Shown here piece after piece: positions 4,993-46,354 of a stretch of DNA of 46,354 nucleotides. This DNA comes from Elusimicrobiota bacterium (GTDB taxonomy: Bacteria > Elusimicrobiota > Elusimicrobia > UBA1565 > UBA9628), in NCBI GenBank assembly GCA_028869495.1, contig JAGWRY010000285.1, positions 1 to 46,354 on the forward strand. Direction: 5' to 3'. The notes beneath the pieces were generated by a model. It was not told where the DNA came from, made no database searches, and was given only the letters and a program-made list of their open reading frames with translations. A program made the translations under genes and the position numbers. Position 1 is the stretch's first letter. Each line of letters begins with the position of its first letter.

Positions 4993-6279
4993 GTGCCGGC
5001 ACTCGTGGTCGTGGGCGCCCAGTGGGGCGACGAAGGGAAGGGGAAGATCGTCCATTTTCTGGGCCGCGGCGCCGACTGGGTCGTCCGCTACCAGGGCGGC
5101 GACAACGCCGGCCACACGGTCGTCTTCGACGGCCAGAAGTACGCGCTGCACCTGATCCCGTCGGGCATCCTTCAGCCCGGCGTCAAGAACGTCGTCGGCG
5201 ACGGCGTCGTCGTCAACCCGCTCGCCTTCGAGGGCGAGGTGCGCATGCTCGAGCGCCGCGGCATCAAGGTCCGCGGCCGCCTCTTCCTGAGCCTGTCCGC
5301 GCACGTGATCCTGCCCACGCACGTCTACCTCGACACTCTGCGCGAGGAGGGCGGGCGCGGGATCGGCACGACGAAAAAGGGGATCGGCCCCTGCTACGAG
5401 GACAAGGTCGCGCGCATCGGCATCCGCGTCGCCGACTACCTGGACGCGTCCTCGTTCCGGAAGCTGGTCCGGCAGAGCCTGAAAGTCCGCGCGGCCGAGC
5501 TCACGAAGGTCAAGCCTCTCAAGAAAATCGAGGCCGAGGTCTTCGCCGGCTACGAGGCGCGGCGGCGCTTCCTCGCCCGCTTCGCGGCCGACACCGGCCT
5601 CCTGCTCGACGCCGCGCGGCGCAAAGGCGCGCGGATCCTGCTCGAGAGCGCGCAGGGCTCGATGCTCGACCTCGACCACGGCACCTACCCGTTCGTCACC
5701 TCGTCGAATCCGGTCGCCGGCGGCGCCTGCGTCGGCGCGGGCGTGGGTCCCACGACGATCGGCGCGGTCAACGGCGTCACGAAGGCCTACACGACGCGCG
5801 TGGGCCTGGGCCCCTTCCCGACCGAGGTCGAGGGCCACCTCGCCCGCTACATCCGCGAGGTCGGCAAGGAATACGGGGTGACGACCGGGCGTCCGCGCCG
5901 CATCGGGTGGCTCGACCTGCCGCAGCTGCGGGCCGCGATCCGCATGAACGGCCTGACCTCGTTGACGATGACGAAGCTCGACACGCTGTCGGGCGTCCAT
6001 CCGATCAAGGTCTGCGTCGGCTACCGCCTGCGCGGCAAGAAGATCGCCGAATTCCCGATCGCGCGCCGCGACCAGCTCGACGTCCTGCCGGTCTACGAGA
6101 GCTTCGCCGGCTTCTCCGGCGACCTGAAGGACGCGCGCAAGTTCTCCGACCTGCCGCTGGGCGCGCGCGAGTACGTGCTGGCCGTCGAGCGCAAGCTGGG
6201 CGTGCCGATCCTCATCGTGTCCGTCGGGCAGAGCCGCGAGCAGACGATCGTGCGGGACGCGAAGGCGCTCTGGGGCTGA
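4993..6279 (+). CDS. purA: Adenylosuccinate synthetase
   Basis: GTG start at 4993 is preceded by GAGGGGGGA. Hallmark PurA motifs are present: VVVGAQWGDEGKGKIVHFL, YQGGDNAGHTVV, GTTKKGIGPCYEDK and GVTTGRPRRIGWLD. Confidence 0.95.
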   Translation: MPALVVVGAQWGDEGKGKIVHFLGRGADWVVRYQGGDNAGHTVVFDGQKYALHLIPSGILQPGVKNVVGDGVVVNPLAFEGEVRMLERRGIKVRGRLFLSLSAHVILPTHVYLDTLREEGGRGIGTTKKGIGPCYEDKVARIGIRVADYLDASSFRKLVRQSLKVRAAELTKVKPLKKIEAEVFAGYEARRRFLARFAADTGLLLDAARRKGARILLESAQGSMLDLDHGTYPFVTSSNPVAGGACVGAGVGPTTIGAVNGVTKAYTTRVGLGPFPTEVEGHLARYIREVGKEYGVTTGRPRRIGWLDLPQLRAAIRMNGLTSLTMTKLDTLSGVHPIKVCVGYRLRGKKIAEFPIARRDQLDVLPVYESFAGFSGDLKDARKFSDLPLGAREYVLAVERKLGVPILIVSVGQSREQTIVRDAKALWG

Positions 6280-7225: not shown

Positions 7226-7242
7226 GGGCGGGACGTCCGCGG

Positions 7243-7251
7243 ATTATATCA
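7243..7251 (-). promoter_or_regulatory. Candidate extended -10 element (TGATATAAT read on the minus strand) for the 6212-7225 gene
   Basis: The reverse complement of 7243-7251 is TGATATAAT. It lies 18 nt upstream of the ATG at 7225, which would give a very short leader. I saw no convincing -35 element. Confidence 0.3.
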
Positions 7252-7353
7252 TGGCGCGCGGCGGCCGATTGTGCTATAACCCCTGTCGCGTGGGACCGAA
7301 GAGCGGCCGTGCGGACTTTTTTTGCGCCCCGTCGAGCGGGGACTCCCTGGGTC

Positions 7354-7381
7354 TTGACAAATCAAGGGGGTCTGCTATACT
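7354..7381 (+). promoter_or_regulatory. Near-consensus sigma70-type promoter (TTGACA, 16-nt spacer, TGc-TATACT)
   Basis: TTGACA lies at 7354-7359 and TATACT at 7376-7381, with an extended -10 TG at 7373-7374. This is an A/T-rich consensus island in an otherwise very GC-rich intergenic region, placed about 15-20 nt upstream of the riboswitch-like element. Confidence 0.65.
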
Positions 7382-7397
7382 CGACGTGTCGGACGTT

Positions 7398-7483
7398 GGA
7401 GCGACAAACCGGCAAACCGATCGCGAGGTCGGGGCGCAAAGCGAAGGGCCTCGGGAGGCCGAGGTCGCCTGGCTACCGAAACC
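7398..7483 (+). promoter_or_regulatory. c-di-GMP-I (GEMM-I) riboswitch aptamer (candidate)
   Basis: The elements, in order, are: GGCAAA at 7411-7416; a hairpin CCGATC-GCGA(GNRA loop)-GGTCGG at 7417-7432; CGCAAAGC at 7435-7442; a second hairpin with GCGA 7441-7444 paired to TCGC 7465-7468 and inner GGCCT 7447-7451 paired to AGGCC 7456-7460; and GGCTACCGAAA at 7471-7481. The 5' half is collinear, with identical spacing, with the Vibrio cholerae Vc2 aptamer as I remember it (GGCAAACC-AUUC-GAAA-GAGU-GGGACGCAAAGC). I did not check it with a covariance model. Confidence 0.75.
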
Positions 7484-7490
7484 AAAACCG

Positions 7491-8048
7491 ATGAGCGATC
7501 CGAACGGATTTCGCCCGGCCTCAACCTGCCATGTACGGGATAGAGGGGTTACATGGTCGGTGGGGCCGGGCCTGTTTTTGGCCTTCGCGCTGCTGGGCCT
7601 GACGGTCGCCCGCGCGCGCGCCGAAACGCCGGTCGGCCTGGGCGCCCAGGGCGTCGACCCGATGGCGGCAGTGGACAACCGCCAGGGCCTGGACGTGCGC
7701 GACGCGCTGGGCCGGCCGGTGACCGCGGGCGCCGTCCTGCGCGACTTGAAGCGCGCCGAGGCGGCGCGCACGGCCCAGAACGCCTATGCGAGCGCCCTGC
7801 CGCAGGCCCGCCGGATCCTGCCGGCCCTGGACCTAGCCCCGGGCTTCGGCGCCTGCGTAGTGCGCCTGCTTGAGGCCCTGCCGCGGGCGACGCAGTGGGT
7901 CTCCCTGCCGCCGCCGGGCCCCAAGGTCCTCCTCCTGCTCGTGGCCGTCCTGGGCGCCGTCTTGGTCCAGGGCGCCGCTCTCCTGCCGCGCGACCGCCCG
8001 CTCTCTTGGCGTCTCGGCCGCTGTTGTCCTGAAGTCCTCCGCTGTTAA
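7491..8048 (+). CDS. Small hypothetical secreted/membrane protein (signal peptide plus C-terminal TM helix)
   Basis: Only this frame of the region has G/C-dominated third positions. The track ORF 7005-8048 is trimmed to ATG 7491; GTG 7560, 11 nt after AGAGGGG, is an alternative start. It has a signal-like LFLAFALLGLTVARARA-E, a C-terminal hydrophobic helix VLLLLVAVLGAVLVQGAALL and a Cys-rich tail (GRCCPEVLRC). It is the first ORF after the riboswitch-like leader. Confidence 0.6.
   Translation: MSDPNGFRPASTCHVRDRGVTWSVGPGLFLAFALLGLTVARARAETPVGLGAQGVDPMAAVDNRQGLDVRDALGRPVTAGAVLRDLKRAEAARTAQNAYASALPQARRILPALDLAPGFGACVVRLLEALPRATQWVSLPPPGPKVLLLLVAVLGAVLVQGAALLPRDRPLSWRLGRCCPEVLRC
7513..7579 (+). 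terminator. Extended hairpin plus T-run: candidate riboswitch expression platform / intrinsic terminator
   Basis: GCCCGGCC (7513-7520) pairs with GGCCGGGC (7564-7571). ACC/GGT and CCATGTA (7529-7535)/TACATGG (7550-7556) extend the stem. The hairpin is followed by CTGTTTTT (7572-7579). The loop contains the purine-rich AGAGGGG (7542-7548). CGGCCTC (7516-7522) could alternatively pair with aptamer GAGGCCG (7455-7461). Confidence 0.45.
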
Positions 8049-8209: not shown

Positions 8210-8857
8210 ATGCCCATGTCCGGGTGGGGTGCGTCCGTCTTTCACGCGCGCGCGCGATATAGAACGCTGATCCTGTCGGCGTTCTGCATGGCCTGCGCCG
8301 TCCCCCTGCGCGCCCAGGCGGCGCCCGCCGTGGACGCGTCCACCGTCGCCCCGGCCGAGCCGGCCTCCGTGGCCGAGGGGCACGACCTCGTCATCCGCCG
8401 TGACCGCGGCGCTAAGGCGCGCCTGCTGGCTCTGGCCGCGCAGGAGACCGATCCCAGCGCCAAGGCCAAGCTGATCTATCTGCTGGGCAACCTGCCGGTC
8501 AAGGACTTGGCGCCCGCCGACTTCGACGCAGCCTTGGCCGACCCCGACCCCGGCGTGCGCTTGGCGGCTCTTCTGGGCCTGGGGCGGATCCCCGGGACGG
8601 CGGCCGAGTCCCGGCTCGTGAAGGCCTTGTCCGACCCGAACCCTGGCGTGCGTCAGGGCGCCGCCTTTTGGCTCGGCCAGGCGGCCCATGCGGGTGCGGC
8701 GGCCGACCTGGGGCGGGCTCTGACGCAGGACCGGAACTCCGACGTCCGACTGGCCGCCGCCGAGGCGCTGTCTCGTTTGGGGACGACCGCCGCGCGCCGC
8801 GAACTGCGCCGGGGCGCCAACGACCCCGACCCGCGGGTGAGGCGATGGGCGAAATGA
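8210..8857 (+). CDS. Secreted HEAT-repeat (PBS-lyase HEAT-like) protein
   Basis: AAGGG lies 5 nt upstream of ATG 8210. The N-terminus is signal-like (LILSAFCMACAVPLRAQA-A). There are at least four HEAT-like repeats with the D-P-(D/N)-P-x-V-R signature: DPDPGVRLAALLGLGRI, DPNPGVRQGAAFWLGQ, DRNSDVRLAAAEALSRLG and DPDPRVRRWA. The stop TGA at 8855-8857 overlaps the ATG at 8854 of the next gene. Confidence 0.8.
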   Translation: MPMSGWGASVFHARARYRTLILSAFCMACAVPLRAQAAPAVDASTVAPAEPASVAEGHDLVIRRDRGAKARLLALAAQETDPSAKAKLIYLLGNLPVKDLAPADFDAALADPDPGVRLAALLGLGRIPGTAAESRLVKALSDPNPGVRQGAAFWLGQAAHAGAAADLGRALTQDRNSDVRLAAAEALSRLGTTAARRELRRGANDPDPRVRRWAK

Positions 8858-8964
8858 GCGAGCGCTCCGCGTCGTCCTTCTCCCGCCGGGCCGCCAAAGC
8901 GGCCGCGGCCGCGCTCCTGCTGGCCGCGGCGGGGCTGCTCCTGCGCTCGCGGCCGGCCGAGGCC
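8854..8964 (+). other. Sec-type signal peptide of the giant protein
   Basis: MSERSASSFSRRAAKAAAAALLLAAAGLLLRSRPAEA|TPS has a basic n-region, a hydrophobic core and an A-x-A site. Confidence 0.7.
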
Positions 8965-11900
8965 ACGCCCTCGACCGTGGACCTCAGCGTGAACTCCTCG
9001 TACGCGAACGCGCGCCAGGTCTTCAAGAACGATTGGGGCTATTGGGTCTTCTACAACGGCGGCGTCAATCCGACGGACTTCTCCTACGCGTTCAGCCCGG
9101 ACGGCGTCACCTGGACGCCGGAGGGGACCGTCTTCCATACGACGACGAACAACACGTTCAACGAGACCTCGGTCTGGTATGTGGCCGGAACCTCGACGGC
9201 CTACTCCGCCGCCGGCTCGGCGGCCGCCGATACCAACGGCCGCAATATCGATCCCATCTGGATCAACAAAGGCACCGTCAACGCGGACGGCACCATCAGT
9301 TGGGGCAACGAGGTCAAATACACGTACGGCGCCGCGGTGGCGGGCCGCAACGGCGACATCTACACCCAGCAGCCCTGCGGCGTCGCTTATTCCAATCCCT
9401 CGGGCGGCACTCCGACCCTGTTTGTCGGCACCGAGGGCAAGCAGGCGGGCCGCAACACCTGGGGCGCGATCGGCATGTCGCTGAACGCCGGCAGCCTCGC
9501 CTACGGCAACGCGGCCAGCCCGGGCCGCGGCGCGAACACCGCCGGCTACGTCCACTTGTCGATGGTGCCGGTCGAGAACTCGGGCACCTCCGCGCAGGCC
9601 CTTCTGCTGTTCTACGCGAGCGGCTCATTCTACACCTACCGCTACAACACGTCGAACAACTCGATGAACACGGAGCAGAACCCTCTCAGCACGACGATCG
9701 CCAACAACTACAACGCGGCCGCGACGATGATCGACAACCCCGACAGCCCCGGCGAGGTGCATATCGCCTACATCGACGCCAACGGCAACCTCAACTACAA
9801 GCGGCGCGCCTCGGGCGGGACCTACGCCGGCCCGTACACGCTGACCAGCGCGGGGACGGACGGCACCGCGTCGGCCACTCCCGTCGAGAACCCGTCGATC
9901 GGCCTGGTCAAGCTCGGCGCGGCCTACGAGGTCTACATCGTCTACCAGTCCACCGCGGGGACGCTCAGCTACTTCGTCGGCCCCTCGACGGCGACGTCGG
10001 CCGCGAACTTCACGCAGGTGCGCGACTGGGAGGTGGATACGCTCGGCTCCGTGCAGTGGCCGCAGACGCCGCAGACGATGACGGTCTCTCCGGACCCGCT
10101 CGGCGTCGCCTACACCGACGCCAGCGGCAACGTCTCCTTCGACACGATCATCACCTCCACGTACCCGGCGCCGACGATCACCAGCGCCTACCTTCAGAAT
10201 CCGAACTTCTACCTGACCTCCTCGACGTTCACGCTGGTGGTCAACGGCACCGGCTTCCTTAATTTCGGCGGGACCAAGTACACGCACGGCGCGATCCTGC
10301 AGGGCGGCGCGTCGCAGTCGGGCGTCTCGGTCACCTCGACCACTTACGTCAGCAGCACCCAGATCCTCATCTACGGGACCCTCGTGTCGCCGTCCGGCAG
10401 CTACGACGTGCGCGTGACCAACAGCGACTCCCAGTACGCGGTGCTGAGCTCGACCTTCAGCGTCCCGCCGCCGACCCTGACCGGGCTATGGGACCAGGAC
10501 GGCGGTCTCGTGTCCGGCGGCATCGAGCCGGTGATCCCGGAGGGCGTGGCGCGCAGCCGCCAGCTGACTTTGGTCGGCACGAACTTCGAGCATTGGTCGA
10601 CCGACTCGGCCTCGGTCACCGTTTCGGGAACCGGCATCTCGGTGACTTCGACGTCGTACGTGAGCCCGACGCGGTTCGTCGCGTACCTGAACGTTTCGAC
10701 GGCGGCGGCGGCGGGCACGTACGGCGTCACCGTGGTCAACGCCGACAACCAAGCCTCGGGCATGGTCTCGTCGACTTTCACGGTGACCGCGCCCAGCGCG
10801 ACCCTGCAGTGGCCTCTCCCCGGACTCGGGACCATCCTCAACAACGGGGTCTACTACTCGTCGGGCGTCGACGTGATCTCGGGGCAGGCCTCCTTCACGC
10901 CGAACTCTGGGCAGACGAGTCTTCTGACGTCGCAGGTCCGCATCAGCTCGGCGGACGGCACCGTGTGGAACGGCGCCGGCTTCGTCAACGCGGCCTTCGG
11001 CTTCCCGTTCCCCGCGTCGGAGAACCAGTGGCAGAACGCGAGCGCGGCGTCGCCGTGGCAGTATGCGGGCTGGCCCAACAACGCTACCGATCAGCAGGAC
11101 AACGCGACGTACTCGATCTCGACCCGCGCGCTCACCGGGGACCAGGGGTGGTCCGTCCCCTATTCTTCGTTCACGTTCCGCATCGACCGCTCTCCTCCGA
11201 CCGCGGGCGTCGCCTCTCCGGTGACTGGCGGAGCCGTCAACAGCATCCCGATCGTCCTCCTGTCCGCCTCCGACTACGGCATCGGCGTCTCCACCATCGA
11301 GGTCAACATCCAGGACGTCAACGACCACGCCTGGAACGGCACCGCTTGGAACGCGACCGCGGGCGCGCAGTGGCTGCCGGTCGGGCAGTTCGCGACGCCG
11401 GGAAATCCCGAGTCGGCGGCGCTTCCCAGCGGGCCCTACCTTCTGCCGACCTGGACGGACGGCACGACGTATTACTTCCAGCTGCGCTCGACCGACGGCC
11501 TCGGCCAGTTCGCGACGACGGCACGCTACCCCGTGATCTACGACGTGACCGCCCCGACGGTGACCGTGACGGCGCCGACGATGAGCGTCAGTTCGGCGAC
11601 GCCGAATTGGGTCAACTCGGTCACCGCGATCGCCGGAACCGTCTCCGACAACGTCACGGACACCCACGACCCCCGCAAGCTGTACGTTCAGATCGCGGAC
11701 CTGAGCGGCACGTTCCTGGAACCGGACCTCGTGACGACGACGAACACCGCAGCGTCGGCCACGAACGGCTATTGGTTCATCCCGCTCGATAACGGCGCCA
11801 ATAATTCCTGGTCGTTGAATCTTGCGGGTGCCCCGTTCGTCCTCGGTGACGAGTACCGCGTCGCCGTCTACGTCTGCGACGGGGCCGGCAACTGCACGGG

Positions 11901-45804: not shown

Positions 45805-45829
45805 TCGACGACGGCCCGCGCGCGCCCCT

Positions 45830-45853
45830 CCGCCCCCGGCCGGGAGGCGGCTT
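45830..45853 (+). terminator. Weak GC-rich hairpin after the giant ORF stop (poor T-tract)
   Basis: CCGCC-CCC-GGCC-GGG-A-GGCGG is followed only by CTT. It is probably leaky if it functions at all, because the next ORF starts 28 nt later with its own AAGGA site. Confidence 0.25.
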
Positions 45854-45880
45854 GTGACTGTCAATAAGGAAAAAGTTAGA

Positions 45881-46354
45881 ATGGGAGCCATGACGGCGAC
45901 CCTGATCGCTCTCGCCGCGGCGCTTCTGTGCGGATCGCCCGCGGCCGCCGCGCCGGCCCCCGACCTCGGGGCGGCCGCCGCGCTGACGCGCTCCTCGAGC
46001 CCGGCCGCGCGCCGGGACGGCGTCCGCGAACTGGGCCGGATCCGTTCCGCGGCGGCCGCGGCCGCGATCGCGCCGCTGCTGTCCGACGGGGATTGGCGGG
46101 TCCGCCAGGCGGCGGCGGAGGAGCTCTCGACGGCGGGCGGCCCGGCGGAACTGCCGGCCCTGATCGGCGCCCTGAAGGATCCCGCCGCCTCGGTCCGCTT
46201 CGCGGCGGCCCGCACGCTGGGCGCCCTGCGCCGGCCGGAGGCCGCGGAGGCGCTCGCGGGCCTCCTCGACGACAAGGATCCCGCCCTGCGTCGGACGGCC
46301 ACGCGGGCCCTGGGCCGCGTCGGCGGCGCGGACGCGCGCGCCGCGCTGATGCGC
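45881..46354 (+). CDS. Second secreted HEAT-repeat protein (3' end outside the window)
   Basis: This ORF is not in the ORF track because it has no stop inside the window. AAGGA lies 9 nt upstream of ATG 45881, and the frame stays open to 46354 (158 codons). It has a signal-like MGAMTATLIALAAALLCGSPAAAA. HEAT-like repeats are present: DGDWRVRQAAAEELSTAG, DPAASVRFAAARTLGALR and DKDPALRRTATRALGRVG. Confidence 0.75.
   Translation, partial: MGAMTATLIALAAALLCGSPAAAAPAPDLGAAAALTRSSSPAARRDGVRELGRIRSAAAAAAIAPLLSDGDWRVRQAAAEELSTAGGPAELPALIGALKDPAASVRFAAARTLGALRRPEAAEALAGLLDDKDPALRRTATRALGRVGGADARAALMR

Follow-up and report, generated by a model that had tools for sequence, protein, structure and literature searches.

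A class-I cyclic di-GMP riboswitch and terminator-like hairpin ahead of a giant-protein gene in Elusimicrobiota

The leader considered here lies at positions 7354 to 7579 of the forward strand in a 46,354-nucleotide (nt) stretch of DNA from an Elusimicrobiota bacterium (contig JAGWRY010000285.1 of assembly GCA_028869495.1), the whole of which is called the window below. It consists of a sigma-70-type promoter, an aptamer of the class-I family for cyclic di-guanosine monophosphate (c-di-GMP), also called c-di-GMP-I or GEMM-I, and a long hairpin with a tract of U residues behind it, and it is followed by a gene for a small secreted or membrane-anchored protein (gene 1), a gene for a HEAT-repeat protein (gene 2) and an open reading frame (ORF) of giant size. 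That the leader carries a genuine class-I c-di-GMP riboswitch, an ordinary member of Rfam family RF01051, is confirmed; that promoter, aptamer and an intrinsic terminator together make an OFF switch ahead of the giant-protein operon is the best overall explanation, which we hold to be probable rather than secure. The features of the leader are as follows.

7354..7381 (+): sigma-70-type promoter, with TTGACA at 7354-7359, a 16-nt spacer, extended -10 TG at 7373-7374 and TATACT at 7376-7381
7396..7399 (+): 5' strand of P1, UUGG, pairing with CCAA at 7482-7485
7401..7480 (+): c-di-GMP-I (GEMM-I) aptamer, a full-model match to RF01051
7411-7416 (+): GGCAAA, aptamer element
7412-7413 with 7436-7437 (+): P1a, G7412-C7413 with G7436-C7437, from alignment to the RF01051 model
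7417-7422 with 7427-7432 (+): P1b, 6 base pairs (bp) of CCGATC with GGTCGG, capped by the GNRA loop GCGA at 7423-7426
7425..7436 (+): candidate antiterminator strand B, GAGGUCGGGGCG (3' strand of P1b plus junction), complementary to CGCCCGGCCUC at 7512-7522
7435-7442 (+): CGCAAAGC, aptamer element
7440-7474 (+): P2, the second hairpin, from alignment to the RF01051 model
7461..7467 (+): candidate antiterminator strand A, GAGGUCG (3' strand of P2), complementary to CGGCCUC at 7516-7522
7471-7481 (+): GGCTACCGAAA, aptamer element
7482..7485 (+): 3' strand of P1, CCAA, 5 nt before the ATG at 7491
7491..7493 (+): conserved in-frame ATG, the probable start of gene 1 from conservation, frame and synonymous excess
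7513..7571 (+): long GC-rich hairpin, the putative terminator stem, from fold energy, z-score and covariation
7572..7579 (+): CUG spacer and U5 tract (7575-7579), read as Leu-Phe-Leu in the frame of gene 1

The identity of the aptamer rests on a scan (cmscan) in which the entire window was compared with all 4227 Rfam families at their gathering thresholds. RF01051 matches 7401-7480 on the forward strand over the full model (positions 1-87 of 87), with 59.6 bits where its gathering score is 35 (E = 2.8e-9), and is the sole family to reach threshold anywhere in the window, RF01786 (c-di-GMP-II) remaining below its gathering threshold throughout. A GEMM-I aptamer had been recognised here in a sequence-only reading of this DNA, which named RF01051 as the model to compare it with, and the score lies far above the threshold of that model. 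The elements which that reading listed, namely GGCAAA, a 6-bp hairpin with GCGA, CGCAAAGC, a second hairpin and GGCTACCGAAA, are all found where it placed them, as are its near-consensus promoter (TTGACA, 16 nt, TGcTATACT) and its long hairpin at 7513-7571 with the T-run that follows.

Counted along the model alignment, the equivalents of G20, A47 (the intercalating base) and C92 of the Vc2 aptamer are G7411, A7438 and C7476, and in 21 aligned leaders G7411, A7438-7440 and C7476-C7477 are invariant. In Vc2, G20 reads one guanine of the ligand through its Hoogsteen face and C92 forms a Watson-Crick pair with the other, while riboswitches of the GEMM-Ib type, which sense cyclic GMP-AMP (cGAMP), carry A at the position of G20 (PMC6140456). 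The position equivalent to G20 being G in the window, the expected ligand is therefore c-di-GMP and not cGAMP, a fit drawn from the bases at these positions. Seven columns of the RF01051 model, 51-54 and 67-69, are deleted in the window aptamer; we take these columns to hold the tetraloop receptor of 'type 1' GEMM RNAs, and their loss is treated as a minor subtype feature. Not every member of the c-di-GMP-I family has its GNRA tetraloop docked into a P2 receptor.

This leader is one of many. Gene 1 has 169 homologs, and all hits to which a source assigns an organism come from metagenome-assembled genomes (MAGs) of Elusimicrobia. An alignment of 32 of the homologs (A1) gave a profile that retrieved 20 loci from species-representative genomes and 22 from metagenomes, and 40 of these loci (the 20 from genomes and 20 of the 22 from metagenomes) were scanned for Rfam families. 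RF01051 stands directly upstream of the gene 1 homolog, at 53-62 bits, in all 20 genome loci and in 19 of the 20 metagenome loci, the one exception among the 40 being a locus cut off at the gene, without any DNA before it. The leaders of the window and of 20 relatives were aligned (A2, 21 leaders), and 32 distinct leaders remain once identical sequences are removed. In A2 the aptamer core is invariant alongside the promoter hexamers and the three ligand-contact positions. The riboswitch with a terminator platform that the sequence-only reading proposed is supported by the conservation of the riboswitch in 39 of the 40 loci and by covariation in the helices of both aptamer and terminator. In one metagenome locus (L035), an nhaA-I RNA (RF03057, 46.8 bits against a gathering score of 37) was observed at 674-723 on the minus strand, some 300 nt upstream of the c-di-GMP riboswitch and on the opposite strand to it.

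The helices of the aptamer are 95-100% paired in the leader alignment, and compensatory changes occur in P1b and P2. P1a is invariant among the relatives and, as such, uninformative on covariation; the six pairs of P1b include two with changes on both sides (99% of alignment cells paired), and the twelve pairs of P2 include three (95%). When the aptamer is counted together with the downstream hairpin, 96.4% of cells are paired and 15 pairs have changed on both sides, neither of which figures is reached in any of 500 shuffles, while shifted registers give only 34-48% pairing. The closing helix P1 (UUGG with CCAA) is paired in 82% of cells, as high as in none of 500 shuffles; its covariation score is matched by 2 of 500 shuffles, and a register slid by +1 scores higher than the true one, such that the covariation support for P1 is modest only. 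Divergent leaders have other complementary pairs at this position, CGUUG/CAACG in L007, AGUUGU/GCAACU in L018 and GACGU/ACGUC in L020. A pairing of UUGG with CCGA given by RNAalifold, one that would occupy the C92 equivalent, was rejected in favour of UUGG/CCAA.

The promoter has 11 of 12 consensus matches together with the extended TG, where shuffled sequence is expected to yield 0.1 such sites, and is the sole site found between 6800 and 8000 by the promoter scan. CTTGACA and TATACT do not vary in any of the 21 aligned leaders, nor in any of the 32 unique ones; indeed, across 7353-7381 the CTTGACA, the 16-nt spacer and the TATACT are unchanged although the protein products are only 42-66% identical, an unusually strict conservation for a promoter. 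Transcription is predicted to start near 7388, about 7 nt past the -10 box. In the divergent intergenic region upstream (7226-7353) two further observations were made, a TATAAT on the minus strand at about 7245-7250, some 20 nt before the ATG (7225) of a minus-strand gene, and a run of seven T at 7317-7323, without a convincing hairpin.

The hairpin at 7513-7571 has a folding energy of -38.5 kcal/mol (z = -3.6, none of 200 shuffles being as stable). Its 22 pairs include 10 that have changed on both sides, and 95.9% of cells are paired, which none of 500 shuffles equals and slid registers (34-48%) do not approach. Its 5' arm contains CGCCCGGCCUC (7512-7522), which is complementary to strands of the aptamer, its loop contains a Shine-Dalgarno (SD)-like GAGGGG at 7543-7548, and its 3' arm contains a GTG at 7560-7562. 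None of the 32 unique leaders lacks a T-run behind the hairpin. L018 and L020 share the hairpin, its loop sequence and the T-run, and there the real ORF begins only past all three, with an in-frame stop in the 3' arm of the hairpin (L018) or just past the T-run (L020); the hairpin and T-run are therefore conserved as an RNA element. The natural reading of hairpin and U-tract is that of an intrinsic terminator. The terminator begins about 30 nt past the aptamer and has no nucleotide in common with it or with P1, and the consensus fold holds the two side by side.

What the hairpin means for gene 1 depends on where translation starts. The GenBank start is the GTG at 7560, within the 3' arm and 11 nt past the GAGGGG of the loop. 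The true start is, however, probably the ATG at 7491, to judge from conservation and coding signal. All 25 leaders of the main group have this ATG in frame, as do L015 and L017; an in-frame ATG lies 6-11 nt past the aptamer in 27 of the 32 unique leaders; the distances from ATG to GTG in the main group (69, 72, 78 and 81 nt) are all multiples of three. The synonymous fraction in the ATG frame against the other two is 0.26 against 0.03 and 0.13 in the linker and 0.39 against 0.22 and 0.20 in the hairpin, as compared with 0.36 against 0.13 and 0.10 in the undisputed codons past the GTG, although these pairwise counts are not phylogenetically independent and constraint on RNA structure could mimic part of the signal. 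The arginine of an 'RFR' motif is written CGA, CGC, CGT or AGA across the leaders. Moreover, only a start at ATG 7491 gives the signal peptide a positively charged n-region, the GTG start leaving none. A twin-arginine signal was weighed for the N-terminal extension but dismissed, the window having VR in place of RR and the context being unfit for the motif. No SD sequence was found ahead of ATG 7491, and topA in the window is without one too. If gene 1 does start at ATG 7491, the terminator hairpin necessarily lies within its coding sequence, in the first 30 codons.

The divergent leaders differ in this respect. The layout of an SD in the loop and a start codon in the 3' arm is found in the divergent subgroups examined as well, with GTG in L016, L019 and L040 and TTG in L015. 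Five of the 32 unique leaders differ at the start, from which it follows that coupling to a ribosome is not a universal mechanism among them. In L018 (6030-6100) and L020 (about 5420-5475) the GTG in the 3' arm of the terminator opens an upstream ORF of 11-15 codons (M[G/R]PGLFF...). Its stop runs into the start codon (ATG) of the gene 1 homolog proper in L018 and lies 2 nt ahead of that codon in L020, which suggests translational coupling from the terminator region.

An antiterminator was sought in three ways, by column-wise scans for complementarity, by folding of prefix transcripts with shuffled-arm controls and by counting of pairs. The 7-nt pairing proposed in the sequence-only reading, GAGGCCG 7455-7461 with CGGCCTC 7516-7522, does exist in the window, but is not the conserved element, and was rejected as such: 7455-7460 is loop sequence of P2 and varies among the relatives. 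Strand A, on the 3' side of P2, pairs with the same part of the terminator arm in 93.8% of cells across 32 leaders (slid registers 26-58%). Strand B pairs with CGCCCGGCCUC at 7512-7522 over 11 bp with one bulged G, in 89.5% of cells (slid registers 40-51%), and this pairing occurs in the minimum-energy folds of several prefix transcripts that end before the 3' arm. In such prefixes, enforcing the aptamer costs 0-13 kcal/mol relative to the minimum-energy fold without ligand. Complementarity between the aptamer and the 5' arm is, in other words, conserved, while not reliably above the GC-rich background, and an antiterminator is compatible with the data. An 8-13 bp complementarity between the 3' strand of the aptamer (7467-7479) and the 3' arm of the terminator was also met and set aside as a by-product of the similarity between the P2 and terminator helices; such a helix would still abut the U-tract and therefore offers no switching logic. 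The column-wise scan gave no conserved stack of linker with arm, and the probability of pairing between arm and linker is at most 0.15 in 15 close leaders.

From these elements the proposed OFF switch would work as follows. Transcription would start near 7388, and the aptamer, closed by P1, would bind c-di-GMP through G7411, A7438 and C7476. Termination would be avoided only where the 5' arm at 7512-7522 is captured by 7425-7436 or 7461-7467, or where a translating ribosome, having initiated at the conserved ATG 7491, runs through the hairpin. With c-di-GMP bound, the aptamer would be locked and the start region near P1 occluded, the hairpin would form and transcription would stop near 7580, the formed hairpin also burying GTG 7560; at low c-di-GMP, transcription and translation would continue into gene 1, the HEAT-repeat gene and the 12,319-residue surface protein. 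The aptamer and terminator have no common nucleotides, and therefore both can form at once. Both routes of antitermination need an unfolded, ligand-free aptamer, which makes an OFF switch the most likely outcome; a ribosome loaded beside an unfolded aptamer would prevent termination, and a terminator internal to the ORF therefore also predicts OFF.

Comparison with characterised riboswitches points in the same direction. In the OFF switch Cd1, aptamer and terminator coexist and compete with an antiterminator built from a strand of the aptamer, whereas in pilM, an ON switch, the fold of the aptamer and that of the terminator exclude each other (PMC9262584). The leader has the non-overlapping layout of Cd1 and OFF is therefore favoured. 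The earlier statement that polarity could not be decided from the sequence thus stands in part only, since the layout leans to OFF by analogy with Cd1 (PMC9262584); on this analogy OFF is mildly favoured, ON is judged unlikely and some other behaviour slightly less likely again.

The likenesses are nonetheless partial. With Vc2 of Vibrio cholerae, the type example of RF01051, the window aptamer shares the full-length model match, the three-helix junction of P1a, P1b and P2, the GNRA loop on P1b, the conserved equivalents of G20, A47 and C92 and a place in the 5' leader of genes of cell-surface function; it differs in having GCGA and not GAAA as the loop of P1b, a shorter P2, the deletion of columns 51-54 and 67-69 and an uncultured Elusimicrobia host. 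Cd1, which precedes the flgB flagellar operon of Clostridioides difficile and is a transcriptional OFF switch (PMC9262584), is alike in its separate, coexisting aptamer and intrinsic terminator and in heading a long operon. Its read-through needs an antiterminator that borrows an aptamer strand, while in the window the antiterminator is a candidate and the polarity is taken by analogy; the terminator of the window differs moreover in being a 22-bp hairpin with an SD-like loop and a start codon, probably inside the ORF. Bc2, before cap in Bacillus thuringiensis, is an ON switch (PMC4933901), and is alike in its class-I aptamer, in an intrinsic terminator beside an ORF of surface or adhesion function and in strong default repression; in contrast to the window, where the terminator is 30 nt off, its expected terminated transcript is about 121 nt, its terminator is apparently close to the aptamer and its ligand brings about read-through. 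The GEMM-Ib 3',3'-cGAMP riboswitches of Geobacter (pilM, Gs1761) are alike in fold, Rfam family and terminator-type platforms, and unlike in the A at the G20 equivalent (PMC6140456), where the window and all 20 aligned relatives have G. By analogy the mechanism appears most like that of Cd1, while the gene context resembles that of Bc2.

Several observations weigh against the OFF switch or against the parts of which it is built. Neither candidate antiterminator shows covariation beyond shuffles (for strand A, 355 of 500 shuffles do as well), and in the prefix folds the pairing of arm to aptamer is not consistently above the shuffled-arm controls, shuffled arms pairing to the aptamer almost as well in many leaders, and is low in L007, L009, L014-L016 and L018. 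A hairpin of -38.5 kcal/mol would beat any competitor of 7-11 bp at equilibrium, such that any control must be kinetic. The U-tract has only five U and stands 3 nt (CUG) from the stem, and is not a textbook one. As to the start, the SD-like GAGGGG and the GTG in the hairpin are conserved in all subgroups, which argues for the annotated start; L016, L018, L020 and L040 have no ATG just past the aptamer although aptamer and terminator are kept, and L019 has its ATG at +4, where its close relatives L016 and L040 have none. Finally, adhesin-like genes tested under c-di-GMP riboswitches, such as Bc2-cap, are induced (PMC4933901), and an OFF switch on a putative adhesin is biologically unexpected.

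These points have to be set against the other explanations. A chance resemblance in GC-rich DNA, or an aptamer relic without regulatory function, may be dismissed almost entirely. Nothing was found in its favour, save that the region is 69% G+C, which inflates folding energies, and that the z-score of the whole leader is only -2.0; it is effectively refuted by an E-value of 2.8e-9 over the full model, by RF01051 standing at one and the same place with respect to the gene in 39 of 40 related loci and by compensatory variation in the helices of aptamer and terminator. That the aptamer senses 3',3'-cGAMP as a GEMM-Ib variant, or another dinucleotide, is very improbable: GEMM-Ib RNAs do match this Rfam model too and initially carried the annotation of c-di-GMP riboswitches (PMC9262584), yet the specificity position is here G7411, invariant in all 21 aligned leaders, where cGAMP riboswitches have A (PMC6140456), and the C92 equivalent, which pairs with the second guanine, is likewise invariant.

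The more serious rivals concern what a c-di-GMP aptamer would do in this leader. Were the same riboswitch an ON switch, c-di-GMP would prevent the hairpin at 7513-7571 from terminating and high c-di-GMP would induce the giant surface protein. We consider this unlikely, though several points favour it: induction at high c-di-GMP is what would be expected of an adhesin in the sessile state, and the giant ORF resembles a repeat-rich surface protein. The class-II riboswitches before pilin and adhesin genes of C. difficile are ON switches. The antiterminator that an OFF switch requires has no covariation support, and Bc2, a c-di-GMP-I riboswitch with an intrinsic terminator just before a collagen-adhesion gene, is an ON switch (PMC4933901). 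The terminator of the window, however, shares no nucleotide with the aptamer or P1, and the ligand cannot directly sequester an arm as it does in pilM (PMC9262584); the expected terminated transcript of Bc2, about 121 nt (PMC4933901), suggests that its terminator is much closer to the aptamer; and where the terminator stands apart, an ON switch depends on a linker able to pair now with the aptamer tail and now with the terminator arm, of which none was found in the close leaders. The other serious rival, possible though doubtful, is that control is mainly translational, with ribosome-dependent antitermination. The riboswitch would then gate entry of the small (30S) ribosomal subunit at ATG 7491, 5 nt past P1, and the hairpin and U-tract within the first 30 codons would terminate only those transcripts that are not translated, which overlaps the OFF explanation as an extra layer. 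It has on its side the in-frame ATG of 27 of 32 unique leaders and the ATG-to-GTG lengths that are all multiples of three, a synonymous excess in the ATG frame comparable to that of the downstream signal-peptide codons, and the positive n-region that only ATG 7491 supplies. The missing SD, the GAGGGG and GTG conserved in all subgroups, and the four leaders (L016, L018, L020, L040) that keep aptamer and terminator without the ATG tell against it, as do the phylogenetic non-independence of the synonymous counts and the share of them that structural constraint on the RNA could mimic. On this rival's own terms, the same 60 nt may tentatively be supposed to encode the n-region and the start of the h-region of the signal peptide, to fold into the 22-bp terminator and to carry an SD and GTG, with c-di-GMP gating an SD-less ATG and the ribosome acting as the antiterminator.

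Whichever mechanism holds, the OFF switch included, the genes downstream are the following; genes in the window, which is 70% G+C, were called from periodicity of G+C at third codon positions (GC3).

7560..8048 (+): gene 1, from GTG (162 amino acids, aa) or from ATG 7491 (185 aa), a small secreted or membrane-anchored protein
8210..8857 (+): gene 2, HEAT-repeat protein of 215 aa (HEAT_2, E = 6e-23; frame by GC3)
8845 (or ATG 8854)..45804 (+): giant ORF of 12,319 aa, uninterrupted, GC3 0.96

Upstream of the riboswitch lie dprA, topA, a xerC-like recombinase gene and purA, together with a minus-strand gene without assigned function. Looked up by exact sequence, gene 2, the xerC-like gene and topA returned no record. 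The product of gene 1 (P0001) is KGM24_09220 of an Elusimicrobia MAG and has no Pfam or NCBIfam match. In alignment A1 its family has a signal peptide, a conserved AETAVGLDARGVDPMAAVDNRxGLDVRDELGRPV and, in its C-terminal part, LPxPRPK, a transmembrane helix, a basic cluster and an invariant final EVLRC, a C-terminal layout that resembles a sorting signal. An AlphaFold2 model of the protein (mean predicted local distance difference test score, pLDDT, 67; predicted template modelling score, pTM, 0.32) falls short of the confidence that a fold search would need. The interval from gene 1 to gene 2 holds no site resembling a promoter or a terminator, and the stop codon of gene 2 and the ATG of the giant gene at 8854 overlap (ATGA). 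HEAT-repeat (PBS-lyase-like) proteins flank the giant gene on both sides, at 8210-8857 before it and at 45752-46354 after it.

The N-terminus of the giant protein is signal-peptide-like, about 900 aa at that end form a unique region, and self-similarity shows a repetitive core at about residues 900-7600. It gives weak immunoglobulin (Ig)-like matches (Big_13, Big_3_2, Big_3_3), and its C-terminal 100 or so residues, with NFPNPFD, resemble FlgD-Ig domains or the C-terminal domains of the type IX secretion system (T9SS), these C-terminal likenesses all being below curated cut-offs. The order of gene 1, a gene of about 230-260 aa and a very long ORF recurs wherever there is DNA enough. By local tblastn, 14 loci have giant ORFs homologous to that of the window (25-43% identity) behind gene 1 and the HEAT gene, the best N-terminal homologs in the fetched loci reaching 43% identity over 881 aa. 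In most related loci gene 1 and the giant ORF are separated by a gene of about the size of the HEAT gene, and in six of these loci its kinship to the HEAT gene of the window is confirmed by tblastn. A word-seeded protein database search with the first 600 aa of the giant protein (window 8845-10644) returned no homolog, a false negative in view of the tblastn matches, negatives of such searches being unreliable for low-complexity queries rich in T, S, A and G.

The sequence-only reading had placed the riboswitch at the head of a giant-gene operon, and the gene order conserved in the relatives bears this out; the 'string of giant genes' of which it spoke is in fact two small genes and then a single ORF of 12,319 codons. 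As for its 'adhesin operon', a surface protein is a fair reading of the giant ORF, whereas an adhesin is a putative assignment that rests on the weak Ig-like and T9SS-like matches.

The aptamer itself is a textbook member of RF01051, within reach of any routine annotation with Rfam. Less ordinary are the lineage-wide invariant promoter with aptamer and terminator before a 37-kb gene, and the terminator that is probably embedded in coding sequence. A full-text search of the literature gave no paper that links Elusimicrobia, riboswitches and c-di-GMP, and the leader offers a testable handle on c-di-GMP signalling in a phylum that is mostly uncultured. With its invariant promoter, its aptamer and terminator and the three conserved genes behind them, the module is a marker of what c-di-GMP switches in these cells. 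Should OFF be the true polarity, a giant adhesin-like protein would be made at low c-di-GMP, contrary to the usual rule that high c-di-GMP means attachment. If the terminator does lie within the ORF, the leader would show a riboswitch that couples translation and intrinsic termination; and if, further, the ribosome is the antiterminator, a riboswitch-controlled, attenuation-like coupling would govern a 37-kb gene across a whole uncultured lineage.

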